Shown here: positions 32,408 to 41,118 of the stretch, piece after piece | Layout: every line of letters begins with the position of its first letter | How positions within the stretch are numbered: position 1 is the stretch's first letter | Assembly: GCA_018333535.1 (NCBI GenBank) | Contig: JAGXTA010000046.1 | Coordinates: 20,551 to 84,550, forward strand | Length of the DNA stretch: 64,000 nucleotides | Direction: 5' to 3' | DNA from: Deltaproteobacteria bacterium | GTDB lineage: Bacteria > Desulfobacterota > BSN033 > UBA1163 | Notes under the pieces: model-generated | Seen by the model: the letters and a program-made list of their open reading frames with translations, nothing else | Databases searched by the model: none | Told to the model about the DNA's origin: nothing | Translations under genes and position numbers: made by a program

Positions 32408-32641
32408 ATGCCGATTTATGAGTACCGTTGTGAGAGGTGTGGTCAAGAGAATGAATTTCTAATTATAGGAAGGAAGGAGAAACTCCGATGCAAACAATGC
32501 GGGAGCGAGGATTTGACGAAGCTGCTGTCTGCCCATAATACATCCAACAGCTCTTCGCGAAGATCTTCTGAACCCGGTCCCGGAGGCTGTTGCGGGGCGC
32601 CTAATTCCTGCGGAACACCGGGGAGTTGTTGTTCTGGGTAG
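32408..32641 (+). CDS. FmdB-family zinc-ribbon protein with a Cys/Gly/Ser-rich tail
   Basis: MPIYEYRCERCG...CKQCGS hallmark. RBS GGAAGGAGG. Confidence 0.7.
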   Translation: MPIYEYRCERCGQENEFLIIGRKEKLRCKQCGSEDLTKLLSAHNTSNSSSRRSSEPGPGGCCGAPNSCGTPGSCCSG

Positions 32642-32713
32642 GTATGGCACTTCTACGGTTCTTTTCTTAAGAGGGTGTTCGGGTAGTAAAAAGATAAAAA
32701 GGAGGTGAAAACC

Positions 32714-32998
32714 ATGTTATCAAATATACCCATCAATCTTGAGCTTGTTGGAAAGGGAGACACGGACAAAGAAATACTAAGGGCCGGGGTCATCGCGGAA
32801 CTGGACGCTATCAACCTTTACGAACAAATGGCCGCCATGGCCAAAGATAAGAATCTCAAAAAAATTCTGCTTGATATAGCCAAAGAAGAGAAAACTCATG
32901 TCGGAGAATTCCTGACACTGCTCCTGAGAAAAGACGGAGAGCAAGAAGCGGAGCTAGAAAAGGGAAAAAAAGAGGTTGAAGAGTTGATGGAAAAGTAG
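32714..32998 (+). CDS. Ferritin-like/rubrerythrin-like small protein (EncFtn-like)
   Basis: ELDAINLYEQMA...IAKEEKTHVGEF, with the E..H di-iron ligand pattern. Strong RBS AAGGAGGTG. An alternative GTG lies at 32705. Confidence 0.6.
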   Translation: MLSNIPINLELVGKGDTDKEILRAGVIAELDAINLYEQMAAMAKDKNLKKILLDIAKEEKTHVGEFLTLLLRKDGEQEAELEKGKKEVEELMEK

Positions 32999-33131
32999 GA
33001 ATGGTAGGACGTTTCTAAGGATGTTGTCGCCGAGGATATTCATTGTCATATTGAAGATATTGTTTCAAATTCCAAATTGGATTCTAAAAGTGATAAAATG
33101 AGACTAGAACGAAGACCAAAGGAGGTGTCTT

Positions 33132-33839
33132 ATGGCCGAAGCAATAGATGGATGCGTGAAACCGGCAAAAGGGCCAATTATGGCTGGAGAATCGAAAGCC
33201 TCTCAACTGTCACCAATTCAAAAGGAGGAAATCAAAATGATCGCTCGAGTTGGCAAACCGGCGCCCGATTTTGAGGCAAGCGCCTATGTGGATGGGGGAT
33301 TCAAGAACATTAAGCTTTCAAATTATAAAGGAAAGTGGGTCGTCCTTTGCTTTTACCCTGGAGATTTTACCTTTGTCTGACCTACTGAATTGTCGGCAGT
33401 TGCCGCCAAATATCAAGAATTCAAGTCCCTTGGCGTAGAATTTTTATCATTCAGCACAGACAGTCGTTTTACCCACAAGATCTGGCAGGAGGAGGAGCTC
33501 TCAAAAATGGTTCCAGGTGGAGTGCCATTTCCAATGCTGTCAGATGCAGGTGGTCGTATTGGTAGTGTCTATGGAGTCTACGATGAAGATGCAGGGGTGG
33601 ACATTCGGGGTCGTTTTTTAATCGATCCGGATGGAGTCATTCAAGCCATGGAGACGGTCACGCCACCGGTGGGCCGGAACGTTTCTGAACTGATCCGACA
33701 GGTCAAGGCTTTTCAGCATACACGCGTTACAGGTGAGGTGATGCCTTCCGGATGGCAGCCTGGAAAACCGACCTTAAAGCCCGGTCCTGATTTGGTGGGA
33801 AAAGTTTGGAAGGTCTGGAAACCGGAAATGGCCTATTAA
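33132..33839 (+). CDS. Peroxiredoxin (AhpC/Tsa family) with in-frame UGA (selenocysteine predicted) at the peroxidatic-Cys position. Copy 1.
   Basis: ...FYPGDFTFV[TGA 33378-33380]PTEL... where the family has FVCPTE. The ORF track shows two same-frame ORFs split only by this TGA. The N-terminal 35-aa extension is conserved by synonymous changes in copy 2. Confidence 0.8.
33392..33407 (+). promoter_or_regulatory. Candidate bacterial SECIS hairpin 11 nt downstream of UGA in copy 1
   Basis: GTCGGCAGTTGCCGCC, a small stem-loop with GUU in the loop. Conserved in copy 2 at 38734-38749. Confidence 0.4.
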
Positions 33840-35814: not shown

Positions 35815-36093
35815 ATGATGTTTTATAAAAAAGAATGTATCATCAGTTCCGTTGAGACTCAGATTATCTTCACTTAAAAATCCCTCCGAACTTCCCTTTA
35901 GAGAGATGGTGGGATTTGATTTGCAGGGCGAGGCTTTAGCTTTGCATCAAGCAACCCTAAAGAGCTGCCCTACAAATAATTGGAGAAGGGGGTGTATTTG
36001 TTATTTGATCATATGGAAAGGAGGTGATGGACTGAAGATTAAATTCGGTTGGGTGGGGATGAATCTATAAAAATTAAAAGGGAGGTGGAAGTC

Positions 36094-37155
36094 ATGTTAA
36101 AGGAGATGAATCGAAGGGACTTTTTAAAGACAACAGCAGCGACAGGTGCGGTATTGATGGCAGGAGATGTTTTGAAAGGAGGTGCTACAATGGCATATGG
36201 TTCTGTAAAAATCCCAGAGGTTGAAAAATTGGTTATTACCGTCATAACGGACAATTACTATGATTGCCTGAGGCCAAATTACAAGGTGGCTAAGAGATAT
36301 TTCATCATTCCTGGTACATCTATCCATTCAGAGCATGGCTTGGCTTATTACATCGAGACGGCCATCAATGGCAAGCCCAATACCTTTATGTTTGATTATG
36401 GATTGGATTTCCAGGGGGTCGGTAAAAACATGGAGCTTCTCGACATCGACGTGAAGAGAGTAGAGGCACTAGGGATAAGCCATGGCCATTTTGACCATTG
36501 GGGAAATCTTATTGCCATTCTCAAATATAATAGAACGAAAATCAGGAAGGGGATCCCCTTGTATGTAGGTGAGGAAACCTTTTCTCACAGGTTTGCCAAA
36601 CTGCCACCCGGACCTTTCGAAGTAAGTGGTCTCATTGATCTGGAGCAGTTGAGAAGGGATGAGATCGAAAGCCTCGGCACGGTTAAGATTGTAGAGGTAA
36701 AAGATCCGACTCTTATTGTTCCTGGAGCATATCTGACTGGAAATATTGAAAGAGTTACCGAATATGAGAAAGGGTCGCCGATTTTATTAATCAAAAGAGG
36801 AGATAAAATGGATCTCGATCTCTTCATGGGAGAGCAGGCACTGGTATTTAATGTAAAGGGAAAGGGTTTGGTAGTTGTCTCATCCTGTGCCCATGCCGGG
36901 ATTGTCAACACAGTAAAACACGCCCAGAAAATGACTGGAATAGATAAAGTCCATGCCATCATCGGAGGATTTCATTTGAGCGGTGCCAAACCTGAGGTAA
37001 TCCAGAGGACGATTGCCGACATCAAGGCTGTTACTCCAGAATACATCGTTCCCATGCACTGTACTGGATTTGAGGCCGTCACAGCATTCGCCAGAGAAAT
37101 GCCAGGGCAATTTATCATTAACACTGCCGGAACCAGATACATCTTTACAGCTTAG
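36094..37155 (+). CDS. MBL-fold metallo-hydrolase with a twin-arginine (Tat) signal
   Basis: MLKEMNRRDFLKTTAATGAVLMA Tat motif. HGHFDHWG metallo-beta-lactamase motif. RBS GGGAGGTGG. Confidence 0.8.
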   Translation: MLKEMNRRDFLKTTAATGAVLMAGDVLKGGATMAYGSVKIPEVEKLVITVITDNYYDCLRPNYKVAKRYFIIPGTSIHSEHGLAYYIETAINGKPNTFMFDYGLDFQGVGKNMELLDIDVKRVEALGISHGHFDHWGNLIAILKYNRTKIRKGIPLYVGEETFSHRFAKLPPGPFEVSGLIDLEQLRRDEIESLGTVKIVEVKDPTLIVPGAYLTGNIERVTEYEKGSPILLIKRGDKMDLDLFMGEQALVFNVKGKGLVVVSSCAHAGIVNTVKHAQKMTGIDKVHAIIGGFHLSGAKPEVIQRTIADIKAVTPEYIVPMHCTGFEAVTAFAREMPGQFIINTAGTRYIFTA

Positions 37156-37307: not shown

Positions 37308-38459
37308 ATGAGATCTTTTCTTAATCAATATGTTAAATTACCCATCGTTTTATTTGCCTTAATTCTTCCCTTATTTTTTACTATATCAATCTCTCTCGCT
37401 TTAGACTTCGCTCCCATTCGAACCCCGTCCACCGGCTATCAACCTCAATTTCAAGTCTCAGGGAACAAAATCTACTATGTCTGGCATGAGTACGATGGTC
37501 CCTATCGGCAGATTTTCACTGCGGAAATGAACACTGATGGGACAGGATGGAGGTCAGAAAAAAGAACTTCTGGCCAATTTGATAAAGTCTTTCCTCAACT
37601 TCAGGTTGCGAATGACAAGATCTATTATGTTCGTCAGCAACCTGATCTAACAATAAATCGCCAGATCTGGACGATGGAGATGAGCATTGACGGAACAGGA
37701 TGGAAAGAGGTTCAGAGGACGAATACCCCCTTTGATAAGCAGTTTCCCCAGCTACAGGTGGTTGGCAATAAAATTTATTATACCTGGAATGAATCAGATG
37801 GAAAACACCGCCAGGTATGGACAGCAGAGATGAATTTAGATGGGTTGGGCTGGGAGGCAGTGAAAAGGACCTCAACACCTTATGACAAATTTGAGCCTCA
37901 GCTTCAGGTCGTGGGTGAAAAAATCTATTTCGTTTGGAGGGAGTTTGACGGAAGACATTTTCAGATCTGGACGGCTGTCATGGATATTGATGGGAAAGGG
38001 TGGCAAGAAGTGAAGCGGACAAATACCCTGTTCGACAAACATAACCCGCAACTCCAGGTGGATGAAGGAAGAATCTACTATACCTGGCATGAAGCAGATG
38101 GCCCGGATTGGCAAAAAGCAAGATATCAGATATGGACAGCTCAGATGAACATCAATGGAACAGGATGGCTGGCGAATCAAAGAACCTTTGTAGGCTTTGA
38201 TAAGTATACCCCCCAATTACAAGTTCAACGAGGAAGAATTTATTATATCTGGGAGGAATCTGATGGGAAATATCGTCAGATTTGGACGGCTGTGACGAGT
38301 AAGGATGGAACGGGATGGATATCTGAAAAGAGGACGACATCTCCTTATGGAAAATACGACCCCCAATTTCAGATTGTTGGGAATAGAGTTTATTATGTGT
38401 GGCACGAAGACCACGGACCTACTGAACCCATCTGGGTGGCTATAGAGACACTAAAATAG
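37308..38459 (+). CDS. Secreted repeat protein with about 6.5 tandem copies of a roughly 46-aa unit (beta-propeller-like)
   Basis: Signal peptide. Repeats of [48 protein letters not shown]. Confidence 0.7.
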
Positions 38460-38473
38460 AAAGGAGGTTAAAT

Positions 38474-39181
38474 ATGGCTGAAGCAAAAGATGGATGTGTG
38501 AAGCCGGCAAAGGGGCCCATCGGTTTGGCGGAAACCAAAACCTCTCAAACCGCACAAATCCAAAAGGAGGAATTGAAGATGATGGCTCAAGTTGGAAAAC
38601 CAGCACTGGATTTTGAAGCGAGTGCCTATATCGACGGGGGTTTTAAAAATATCAAATTATCTGATTATAAAGGCAAATGGGTAGTCCTCTGTTTTTATCC
38701 CGGTGATTTCACGTTCGTTTGACCTACCGAGTTGTCGGCAGTTGCCGTCAAATACGATGAGTTCAAATCGCTCGGAGTTGAGGTTTTGTCATGCAGTACA
38801 GATAGCCGCTTCATCCACAAGATCTGGCAGGAAGAAGAACTCTCGAAGATGGTGAAAGGTGGGGTTCCCTTTCCGATGCTGTCGGATGCAGGAGGCCGCA
38901 TCGGGAGTGCCTACGGCGTCTACGATGAAGAAGCAGGAGTCAATATTCGGGGTCGTTTTTTGATCGATCCGGATGGGGTCATCCAGGCAATGGAGACTGT
39001 TGCTCCACCGGTCGGCAGGAACGTTCCCGAACTGATCCGGCAGGTCAAGGCCTTTCAGCATGTGCGTGCAACGGGTGAGGTCATGCCTTCCGGATGGCAA
39101 CCTGGGAAACCGACCCTAAAACCCGGACTGGATTTGGTTGGCAAAGTATGGAAAGTCTGGAAACCCGAGATGGCTTTTTAA
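38474..39181 (+). CDS. Peroxiredoxin (AhpC/Tsa family) with in-frame UGA (selenocysteine predicted) at the peroxidatic-Cys position. Copy 2.
   Basis: ...FYPGDFTFV[TGA 38720-38722]PTEL.... About 75-80% nt identity to copy 1 across the whole gene, including the N-terminal extension. Confidence 0.8.
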
Positions 39182-39272: not shown

Positions 39273-39734
39273 ATGTACAGATGTATGATGGATAAGGAAG
39301 CTCATCAACTTAAAGATTTTTTAGAATTGGGTGGACTAAAAAGTACCAAAGAAAGAGAAACGATTCTCAAAGAACTTGAAGTTCTGGAGGAACATTTCAA
39401 CGCTGAAAAACTATATTCAATTCTCAGCAGAAAGGGAACGAAGGTCTCACGACCTACTATTTATCGAACGCTAAAGCTTCTTGAACGATTCCATCTCATT
39501 GAAAGGCTCGATGTTAAAAAGAACTGTTTCTATTACGAGCCTATGTCTCATAAAAAGGACCATGGCCATCTGGTTTGCGAGCATTGTGGGAGGATTATTG
39601 ATTTTGCAAGTGAGAGTATTCAAGATTTGAAATCGGAGGTATTCGAGGGGAAGAACTTCAAACTGGACAATATTTCCATTCAGATATTCGGCATATGCGA
39701 GACATGTCAGAAAACATCTAAAATTAAAAGCTAA
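39273..39734 (+). CDS. Fur-family transcriptional regulator (PerR-like by context)
   Basis: HGHLVCEHCG...CETCQ metal sites and the Fur fold. It lies between the Sec-peroxiredoxin and the Sec-NADH-oxidase-like gene. Confidence 0.8.
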   Translation: MYRCMMDKEAHQLKDFLELGGLKSTKERETILKELEVLEEHFNAEKLYSILSRKGTKVSRPTIYRTLKLLERFHLIERLDVKKNCFYYEPMSHKKDHGHLVCEHCGRIIDFASESIQDLKSEVFEGKNFKLDNISIQIFGICETCQKTSKIKS

Positions 39735-39750: not shown

Positions 39751-41118
39751 ATGTTAAAGAAAGAGAAACTTGTCATCATTGGCGGATCGGCCGCTGGCCC
39801 CAGTGCAGCAGCCAGGGCAAAGCGAGTTAATCCTGATCTTGAAGTGACTATGTTCGAACAGGGTCGATTCGTATCCTATGGCTCCTGAGAAACTCCTTAT
39901 TACATCGGTGATGTAGTAAAAGATCAGAGCAAATTGATAGTCCGGACACCCCAACAGTTTAAAGAAATGCAAGATATTGATGTGAAGACCGAGCATCGCG
40001 TCACTAAAATTGATTCCAAAGAGAAAAGGATTGAAGTTGTGAATTTATCAAAATCCGAAACTCAATGGTTTTCTTACGACAAACTTATCGTTGCTACAGG
40101 TGCCCGATCCAGACGTCTCAATATTCCCGGAAGCAATGCCAAGAACATATTCACCCTGAAAGATCTTGATGACGGCATCCGTATTAAGAATTATATCGAT
40201 GAAAAAAGGCCGAAAAGGGTTGCTATCCTCGGTGGTGGCTTTATTGCATTGGAGATGTGCGAGGCTTTTCGGTTAAGAAATTGTGAGACCTTTCTATTCT
40301 GCCGCAGAGATTTACCCGCGGGTAATCTCGAAAGGGAAATCTCTGAAAAAATATTGAAGGAGTTAGAAGAGAATGGCATTCATTTCCTCGCCCATCATGA
40401 ACCCGCAGCATTTAAGATGAATAGTAATGGAGAAGCCATCTCCTTCGAAACCAATAAAGCCGAATATCCTGTGGATATGGTCTTGATGGCCATTGGAGTC
40501 ATTCCGAATGTGGAAATAGCTAAAGAGGCAGGTATTGAGCTTGGAAAGACCGGAGCGATTCGAACAGACACGGCTCAAAGGACTAATCTTACAGACATTT
40601 ATTCGGCAGGAGACTGCTCAGAAGTTTTTAATCTCGTGAGTCAGGATTGGGTTCATACACCCCTTGGAGATATTGCGAACAAACAGGGCCGGGTGGCAGG
40701 TGAGAACGCTGCCGGTGGAAAGGCCACTTTTTCCGGTGCAGTGGGGTCAGCTGCTTTTAAGGTTTTTGAATTGGAGGTGGCCTTCACAGGTTTAGGAACA
40801 CAGACTGCCCGAGGATATGGTTTTGATGTGGATTCACAGATCATTGAGGCTGAATCGAAGGTAGGATATATGCCGGGATCAAAATGGATGCTCATTAAGT
40901 TGATTTTTGATAGAAGGAGTGGAAGGCTTTTGGGTGCTCAGATGGTCGGGAAGGAAGGAGTGGCTCGGAGGATCAACGCCCTTGCGGTCGCGGTTCATCA
41001 GAAGATGAGCGTGGACGAAATTGCACGGCTCGATTTTGCTTATGCGCCTCCTTTCTCCGCTCCCTTGGATCCGATTTTAATAGCTGCCGAGCAGGCAGCG
41101 AAGAAAATCGTTAGGTAG
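39751..41118 (+). CDS. NADH oxidase/CoA-disulfide reductase-family FAD-dependent oxidoreductase with in-frame UGA (selenocysteine predicted) at the redox-active Cys position
   Basis: RBS GAGGAGAGG. N-terminal FAD motif LVIIGGSAAGPSAAARAKR. FVSYGS[TGA 39886-39888]ETPYYIGDVV compares with the family motif ISFANCGLPYYIGG. The frame is continuous with ORF 39934-41118. Confidence 0.75.
39896..39919 (+). promoter_or_regulatory. Candidate bacterial SECIS hairpin beginning about 10 nt after UGA
   Basis: Stem TTATTACATC/GATGTAGTAA with one mismatch. Apical loop GGU. Confidence 0.45.

Follow-up and report, generated by a model that had tools for sequence, protein, structure and literature searches.

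How a selenoperoxiredoxin without the usual resolving cysteine could be recycled, and from which of two in-frame start codons it is made, are the questions raised by two paralogous genes, here called prxA and prxB, in a 64,000-nucleotide stretch of DNA from a Deltaproteobacteria bacterium (GenBank assembly GCA_018333535.1, contig JAGXTA010000046.1, positions 20,551 to 84,550 of the forward strand; this whole stretch is referred to as the window). Both encode peroxiredoxins with selenocysteine (Sec) at the peroxidatic position, methionine at the position of the canonical resolving cysteine, and an N-terminal extension of 35 codons that includes a cysteine. Peroxiredoxin mechanisms are classified by the location of the resolving cysteine and, to our knowledge, the recycling of selenenic acid in Sec-peroxiredoxins has hardly been studied. 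The original prediction, made from the sequence alone, proposed that the cysteine of the extension takes over the resolving role or, alternatively, that dual starts produce long and short isoforms. Our analysis combines the two proposals: the genes encode PrxU-type enzymes with two putative translation starts, and the cysteine of the tail would serve as a resolving or relay thiol. We assign this combined explanation a probability of about one half.

The long-form genes and the Shine-Dalgarno (SD) sequences of their upstream starts are located as follows.

33132-33839, + strand: prxA long-form coding sequence, a PrxU-type selenoperoxiredoxin of 235 codons plus stop (open reading frame with in-frame TGA, match to NF040737, alignment with human Prx2)
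33837-33839, + strand: prxA stop codon, the end of the reading frame after TGA readthrough
33121-33125, + strand: SD of the prxA upstream start, GGAGG core within AAAGGAGGTG; common to prxB, with an SD of at least 5 nucleotides in 76 of 79 homologs
38474-39181, + strand: prxB, paralogous long-form coding sequence with the same layout as prxA
38463-38467, + strand: SD of the prxB upstream start, GGAGG core, counterpart of the prxA element

Codons 1-35 of prxA occupy exactly 33132-33236. Both proteins start with MAEA(I/K) and have near-identical N-termini; 5′ of codon 1 the Shine-Dalgarno sequence is the sole stretch in which the two genes are similar. The extension with a ribosome binding site of its own, as originally described, is thus present in both paralogs, a GGAGG core preceding codon 1 in each.

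The products are peroxiredoxins of the Prx1/AhpC fold and belong to the PrxU family. They match the Pfam families AhpC-TSA (8.8e-39) and 1-cysPrx_C, the C-terminal peroxiredoxin domain, and score 400.2 bits with the NCBIfam equivalog model NF040737 (peroxi_PrxU), for which the curated cutoff is 270. Positions 2-233 of the 233 in this profile match residues 6-233, so the score is full-length and the curated PrxU model already covers the extension. A search of solved structures found human Prx2 at 6e-56; alignments with the closest structures (Prx2, Prx4, Prx1 and AhpC) begin only at residue 36-40. Foldseek comparison of the model of a 71%-identical homolog gave template modelling scores of about 0.9 to Prx2, Prx3, Prx4 and AhpC over some 190 columns, all of them in the core. 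The active-site motif P76-G-D-F-T80-F-V-U83 corresponds to PxxxTxxC with Sec in place of Cys, and T80 and R159 are invariant in an alignment of 82 sequences; the thioredoxin-fold core, the active-site motif and the conserved arginine of the Prx1/AhpC subfamily are therefore all present.

The codons for selenocysteine and the accompanying hairpins are the following.

33378-33380, + strand: UGA for Sec83, the peroxidatic residue of prxA (PGDFTFVUPTE); TGA in 79 of 80 homolog genes, alignment with Prx2
38720-38722, + strand: UGA for Sec in prxB, paralogous to the prxA site
33390-33409, + strand: hairpin of prxA resembling a selenocysteine insertion sequence (SECIS), UUGUCGGC-AGUU-GCCGCCAA, starting 9 nucleotides past the UGA and supported by covariation
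38732-38751, + strand: SECIS-like hairpin of prxB, same layout as in prxA

The UGA aligns with the cysteine of homologs; TGC or TGT takes its place in L014, L081 and L082 (L numbers denote loci and P numbers denote proteins). The stem of the hairpin has 8 bp and its loop reads AGUU or GGUC; the structure begins 12 nucleotides past the first base of the UGA. Across 29 sequences 83% of cells were paired and 14 cells had changes on both sides, a covariation score that was reached by none of 500 shuffles; the hairpin was tested as a named 8-bp structure, RNAalifold alone having predicted just 3 base pairs. A covarying hairpin after an in-frame UGA identifies the peroxidatic residue as selenocysteine. 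Sec83 is thus the peroxidatic residue in prxA and prxB, as had been predicted. Rfam searching gave a single tRNA, with no match to a SECIS family and nothing in the region of the extension, and no tRNA-Sec was found within the 64-kb window.

A third UGA gene in the window (39751-41118, + strand) also supports the use of selenocysteine. Its product is a flavoprotein of the CoA-disulfide-reductase/NADH-oxidase-like type, scoring 427 bits with TIGR03385 (under the cutoff of 579), with TGA at 39886-39888 in the position of the redox-active cysteine (VSYGS*ETPYY) and a hairpin that begins 8 nucleotides past the UGA. PMC13188914 lists members of this family with Sec.

Comparison of prxA with prxB by Nei-Gojobori counts, expressed as the ratio of non-synonymous to synonymous substitution (dN/dS), separated the extension into two parts.

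33132-33179, + strand: conserved tail motif, codons 1-16 (dN/dS 0.027; motif conserved in 79 genes)
33153-33155, + strand: Cys8 codon of prxA, invariant cysteine
38495-38497, + strand: Cys8 codon of prxB, invariant cysteine
33180-33236, + strand: variable linker, codons 17-35, rich in A/P/E/S/T (dN/dS 0.50)

Six synonymous changes and one non-synonymous change were counted in codons 1-16. The resulting ratio of 0.027 is matched by 0.026 in the core, which argues that the extension is translated and that its first 16 residues are constrained like the core; the linker is far more relaxed. Judged by these counts, purifying selection acts on the 35-codon extension, which is translated, in agreement with the amino-acid conservation initially read from the two paralogs. 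It does not look like a chance open reading frame either. In a search with the first 82 residues, all of the top 120 database matches carried the extension with an invariant cysteine; nearly all of them were 82-residue open reading frames ending at the UGA.

One could suppose instead that the extension is an untranslated RNA or regulatory element and that translation begins from the internal AUG alone. The strong internal SD described below would fit this, as would the choice of the internal start by at least one gene caller. Such an explanation is, however, already contradicted by the comparative data and retains next to no credit: amino acids are conserved through synonymous change at the dN/dS given above, the frame is open in about 75 of 80 species, the upstream start has an SD of at least 5 nucleotides in 76 of 79 genes, exported variants have a signal peptide in the same frame before the motif, and Rfam finds nothing in the extension.

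Homologs were surveyed with one genome per species. The resulting 80 loci span Syntrophaceae, Nitrospirota, Anaerolineae, Dehalococcoidia, Ignavibacteria, Desulfobacterota, Acidobacteriota, Zixibacteria, Armatimonadota, Bacillota, Actinomycetota, Myxococcota and others. The tail is present in about 75 of these 80 species-level loci, a frequency biased by the selection of loci for similarity to a tailed query, and related sequences among them are non-independent observations.

The tail cysteine is invariant in all 79 genes that were checked at the DNA level, from about 78 species in groups that include Chloroflexota. It lies in the motif [D/E]-[G/S]-C-V-x-P-A-[K/R/A/G]-G-P-[I/L], where Cys and the Gly at +6 are invariant, Val at +1 is found in 77 of the 79 genes, and Pro at +3, Ala at +4 and Pro at +7 are near-invariant; the cysteine is codon 8 in 58 genes. 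The linker that follows is 17-22 residues long in 78 of 79 genes, rich in A/P/E/S/T and hypervariable in sequence. A sister clade has the tail G-C-A-R-P-T-G-G-P-V-G, and in it Ala follows the peroxidatic residue. An apparent covariation between the residue after the tail cysteine (V versus A/G/S/Q) and the residue after the peroxidatic one (P versus A) tracks the clade split, with exceptions, and was given no weight. Neither a search with a profile of the tail alone nor a scan of all loci for the motif placed it on any family besides PrxU: the profile matched PrxU N-terminal fragments only, and the short matches were frameshifted pieces of the same gene.

Exported variants (L047, L056 and planctomycete proteins such as P0147) have a signal peptide directly before the motif. 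In L081, from Neorhodopirellula, the DNA has a true cysteine codon, TGT, at the peroxidatic position. Since the signal peptide precedes the motif and the Neorhodopirellula gene has TGT, the mature protein retains the tail, which is not confined to Sec forms. Like P0147, further exported PrxU-like proteins (P0135, P0139, P0141, P0149 and P0161) have a signal peptide and then the Cys motif, without the K-E-x/SD element. L081 adjoins rhodanese and sulfur-transporter genes.

Tail-less Sec genes were confirmed in L078, L063b, L083 and L086. In L083 (positions 1-37) the codons upstream of the start, NQREEPK-M after a TAA stop, resemble a remnant of the linker end, which suggests that this gene lost its tail recently. 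A further tail-less group (P0173, P0180, P0186, P0188, P0193 and others) has cysteine at the peroxidatic position and starts with MTCRIGKPAPDF; residue 3 of these proteins, immediately ahead of the first strand, is a cysteine, a further N-terminal one within the clade, and threonine occupies the canonical resolving position. The PrxU of Eubacterium acidaminophilum is reportedly about 203 residues long with Sec at position 47, and would then be a short, tail-less form. Database counts of "tail-less" forms are unreliable because of truncation at the UGA, misreading as Trp and internal-start calls. Such annotation artefacts are common (proteins P0121-P0240; L084, L085): UGA is given as Trp in many JGI calls, reading frames are split at the UGA into 82- and 149-residue pieces, and starts are placed at the internal ATG. 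A census of tail against resolving cysteine in database proteins was contaminated by UGA read as Trp, by contig-end cuts and by internal starts, so that the DNA-checked loci alone are reliable.

The second start is preceded by an SD of its own in both paralogs.

33222-33228, + strand: internal SD of prxA, AAGGAGG, inside codons K31-E32-E33; SD of at least 5 nucleotides in 72 of 79 homologs, in two codon phases
33237-33239, + strand: internal in-frame ATG of prxA (Met36), putative start of a 200-residue short form; ATG, GTG or TTG in 75 of 79 homologs
38564-38570, + strand: internal SD of prxB, AAGGAGG, as in prxA
38579-38581, + strand: internal ATG of prxB, as in prxA

In both genes AAGGAGG sits 8 nucleotides 5′ of the Met36 ATG, and the end of the linker (QKEE.KM in the lineage of the window) is its sole conserved part. 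An SD of at least 5 nucleotides was found at the codon-36 position in 72 of 79 genes (91%), compared with 10.5% of 15-nucleotide windows in the core coding sequence and 20% of other in-frame ATGs; for at least 6 nucleotides the values were 63 of 79 (80%), 3.7% and 5%, respectively. The start codon is ATG in 59 genes, GTG in 11 and TTG in five (75 of 79 in total), and the spacing between SD and start in the 79 tailed genes is 5-11 nucleotides with a mode of 8. An in-frame internal ribosome binding site with a start codon is thus found in both paralogs and in 72 of 79 homologs.

In 66 genes the GGAG is in codon phase 2; in five it is in phase 0, where it encodes Gly-Gly. The encoded residues vary (K/Q/E/R/L/P/V/M, then E, then V/E/A/G/D) while G-GAG-G is constant. 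Because G-GAG-G is fixed across varying residues and in two phases, the internal SD is conserved as nucleotides and not as protein. The RNA around the internal start is predicted to be less strongly structured than the remaining coding sequence (-6.1 versus -8.8 kcal/mol, p = 9e-12), a difference to which base composition contributes. The internal SD element also occurs in L082, from Desulfoferula mesophila of the sister clade, which has the tail as well; a motif of the type seen in the window is found in L067, from Desulfothermobacter acidiphilus. In L084 the gene caller chose the internal start despite an in-frame upstream tail. All three exported variants checked at the DNA level lack the internal SD (L047 and L056 of the 79-gene set, and L081, checked separately).

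These observations could also be explained if only the long form were made and the internal SD and ATG were left over from an ancestor without the tail, or were a pause site resembling an SD. The tail-less genes in L063b, L083 and L086 indeed have an ordinary ribosome binding site at the equivalent position, and the internal element clearly descends from an ancestral one. A relic, however, would be expected to decay like the substitution-saturated linker around it, yet 91% of genes retain the SD, in two phases, and 95% a correctly spaced start. A role in pausing or folding, for its part, should persist in the exported L047, L056 and L081, which are all without the SD and for which a short form in the cytoplasm would serve no purpose. 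We consider translation of the long form only to be unlikely. Selection, we conclude, maintains an internal initiation site, a 200-residue short form is probably produced beside the 235-residue long form, and actual use of this start is rather likely on the same comparative grounds. The dual starts that the original prediction offered as an alternative to a resolving tail cysteine are therefore strongly supported by comparative nucleotide evidence (SD in 72 of 79, start codon in 75 of 79); they do not exclude a function for the tail.

Three codons bear on the resolving step.

33741-33743, + strand: Met204 codon of prxA at the canonical resolving-Cys position (alignment with Prx2)
39083-39085, + strand: Met204 codon of prxB, as in prxA
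33348-33350, + strand: Cys73 codon of prxA (LCFYPGDF), a second clade-conserved cysteine ten residues before Sec (alignment)

Residue-for-residue alignment of GEVMPSGW with GEVCPAGW of human Prx2 places Met204 at the position of the canonical resolving cysteine, as had been noted at the outset. The C-terminal VCP resolving cysteine of typical 2-Cys peroxiredoxins is thus missing here, and only about 5 of 196 clade members have a cysteine at this position. Several features favour a role of Cys8 in its stead: the cysteine is invariant, its motif is conserved, the tether is constrained in length and the canonical cysteine is absent. Attack of Cys8 on the selenenic acid of Sec is chemically reasonable, and MsrB1 provides an analogue that makes it plausible: the selenenic acid of that enzyme cannot be reduced by thioredoxin unless a selenenylsulfide with the N-terminal Cys4 is formed (PMC1278935). 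Resolving cysteines N-terminal to the peroxidatic cysteine are known from Ahp1 and Asp f3 (PMC5022050).

According to the combined explanation, each mRNA would have two in-frame starts, each with its own Shine-Dalgarno sequence. Initiation at codon 1 would give the 235-residue form, with the 16-residue Cys motif held by a disordered tether some 20 residues long; initiation at codon 36 would give the 200-residue form, equivalent to the products of the tail-less clade genes in L078, L063b, L083 and L086. The tail cysteine would most likely act as a tethered resolving or relay thiol. Once Sec83 had been oxidised to the selenenic acid, Cys8 of the same or of a neighbouring subunit in the oligomer would attack it to form a selenenylsulfide, and a thioredoxin-type reductant would then reduce the Cys8-Sec83 bond. 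Long and short subunits would co-assemble. A more elaborate version, in which the long subunits of such an assembly are sub-stoichiometric and their Cys tails act as swinging arms that resolve several Sec sites and pass oxidising equivalents on to thioredoxin, appears doubtful.

A number of observations weigh against the resolving role. The canonical cysteine has been lost clade-wide (mostly to Thr, to Met here), with a tail or without it, and the confirmed tail-less Sec genes imply that the tail thiol is not required for this type of enzyme. Three tailed genes keep the canonical cysteine (L056, L077 and L080). Cys73, present in every tailed sequence (100%) and in 83% of those without a tail, is an alternative candidate. 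AlphaFold monomer models of two natural homologs, P0146 (71% identical) and P0231 (sister clade), gave moderate predicted local distance difference test values for the tail (54, 75, 53, 64 and 72, 71, 63, 66 in successive 10-residue blocks), compared with more than 90 in the core. No dedicated reductant gene is conserved beside PrxU across the 80 loci. Finally, the lone cysteine in the similar N-terminal extension of human PrxIV has no catalytic role (PMC3234919). The resolving role of Cys8 therefore stays a tentative assignment, with the balance tilted slightly against it.

The PrxIV precedent leads directly to another explanation, namely that the tail cysteine is a structural staple: at the centre of the ring it would join subunits or dimers through Cys-Cys disulfides, as Cys51 of PrxIV does, and the enzyme, a one-Sec peroxiredoxin, would have a thiol partner as its direct reductant. 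The 40-residue disordered extension of PrxIV has a single cysteine that makes interchain disulfides, the C51A protein keeps activity and decamer formation, and the N-termini point into the ring (PMC3234919); the existence of tail-less Sec homologs agrees with such a dispensable role. A staple, however, needs the cysteine alone, yet V+1, P+3, A+4, G+6, P+7, I/L+8, D-2 and G/S-1 as well as the length of the tether are conserved across phyla. Conservation of eight flanking positions and of tether length suggests docking to a defined site. Moreover, the cytoplasm of anaerobes is reducing, and stable structural disulfides are unlikely there. We regard the staple as quite unlikely.

Docking could, on the other hand, serve a handle: the motif would bind a specific reductase or target protein, to which Cys8 would become linked in a mixed disulfide, and the peroxiredoxin would be a redox relay or sensor, or would take up electrons by way of the tail as a swinging arm, without prior attack of Cys8 on Sec83. 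A conserved motif, a flexible tether and an invariant cysteine would suit a recognition peptide, and regulators of the Fur/PerR family are recurrent neighbours, one of them directly downstream of prxB. Against this, no partner gene is conserved adjoining PrxU across the 80 loci and the motif was not found on other protein families, which makes the handle very unlikely.

One part of the original prediction did not survive the comparison. It had likened the tail motif to a transplanted C-P-A-G resolving motif. In the sister clade the tail reads GCARPTGGPVG, and there is no one-to-one exchange between tail and canonical cysteine: the latter has been lost across the clade regardless of the tail, and the three tailed genes mentioned above keep it. 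The transplanted motif was therefore rejected. The check for the extension in database homologs had the opposite outcome, since it is present with an invariant cysteine in the top 120 matches and in about 75 of 80 species.

The genes around prxA and prxB include an EncFtn-like protein, a Fur/PerR-like regulator and the Sec-containing CoA-disulfide-reductase-like gene described above.

32408-32641, + strand: FmdB-type zinc-ribbon protein with a Cys-rich C-terminus (GPGGCCGAPNSCGTPGSCCSG)
32705-32998, + strand: EncFtn-like/rubrerythrin-like ferritin-fold protein of 97 residues, just 5′ of prxA
36049-37155, + strand: metallo-beta-lactamase-fold protein with a twin-arginine translocation (Tat) signal, between prxA and prxB
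37308-38459, + strand: 383-residue repeat protein with about seven repeats of IYY.W.E.DG...QIWTA.M..DG.GW....RT, directly 5′ of prxB
39273-39734, + strand: Fur-family (PerR-like) regulator, directly 3′ of prxB and 5′ of the Sec flavoprotein gene

Clustering of the genes in the 80 loci identified a Fur/PerR-like regulator, rubrerythrin, a NADH-oxidase/CoA-disulfide-reductase (Nox/CoADR)-like protein, a flavodiiron protein and desulfoferrodoxin as recurrent neighbours. The recurrent neighbours of PrxU are an oxidative-stress set of anaerobes. Homologs of the flavoprotein occur near the peroxiredoxin in 11 of the 80 loci, those of the metallo-beta-lactamase-fold protein near PrxU in 10, and Fur-family genes recur near it in nine. 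The repeat protein has a weak match to DUF5050 and a hydrophobic N-terminus, and is conserved in a Syntrophaceae locus (L002). No encapsulin was seen near the EncFtn-like gene. Two metagenome-assembled genomes of Syntrophaceae show synteny with the window, their nucleotide identity to it being 79-89%.

The tethered Cys motif and the second start, both conserved on peroxiredoxins of many anaerobe phyla, offer specific targets for mutation. If true, co-assembling proteoforms would add a location of the resolving cysteine unseen in other peroxiredoxins, an appended N-terminal tether on a Prx1-type enzyme. It would also be the first peroxiredoxin mechanism to depend on alternative translation initiation, within the literature searched, and the two-proteoform trait would be of ancient origin, with carriers in many phyla of anaerobes. 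That literature, whose coverage is incomplete (the 2001 description of PrxU lies outside it), makes no mention of a PrxU tail cysteine, of the motif or of a second start. A full-text literature search combining peroxiredoxin with internal initiation gave no reported case; the papers returned did not mention peroxiredoxin.

PrxU was first described in E. acidaminophilum (Sohling et al. 2001, as cited in PMC13188914), and both the PrxU family and Sec-peroxiredoxins are already known (PMC13188914). The window proteins resemble PrxU in their Prx1/AhpC-type core, in Sec within PxxxTxxU and in the lack of a canonical resolving cysteine. With typical 2-Cys peroxiredoxins (human Prx2, Salmonella AhpC) they share the fold, the active-site motif, the conserved arginine and the C-terminal GEVxPxGW arm; they differ in the peroxidatic Sec, in Met (Thr in most relatives) for the resolving cysteine and in the added Cys tail. 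PrxIV (PMC3234919) is also of the Prx1 subfamily and has a disordered single-Cys extension of about 40 residues, which follows a signal peptide as it does in the exported bacterial variants. It keeps the canonical resolving cysteine, however, and its Cys51 is dispensable; the extensions are dissimilar in sequence, and no internal start is known for PrxIV.

Bacterial proteoforms from internal initiation (Ribo-RET survey, bioRxiv 10.1101/520783; review PMC13515050) likewise have an SD-led in-frame start and a product without the N-terminal module, the evidence for PrxU being of a comparative and not an experimental kind. Ahp1 and Asp f3 (PMC5022050) also have a resolving cysteine N-terminal to the peroxidatic residue, acting across the dimer, but they are Prx5-type enzymes with another dimer interface, and their Cys31 is part of a loop within the fold itself instead of sitting on an added tether. 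In MsrB1 (PMC1278935) the catalytic Sec95 and a flexible N-terminal Cys4 form the selenenylsulfide required for thioredoxin, while Cys-type relatives resolve otherwise or not at all; its fold and reaction are unrelated, it is monomeric, and the corresponding role in PrxU is inferred only. Overall, the family itself is known; new, as far as the literature searched goes, are the Cys tether appended to a Prx1-type selenoperoxiredoxin and the alternative start conserved with it.

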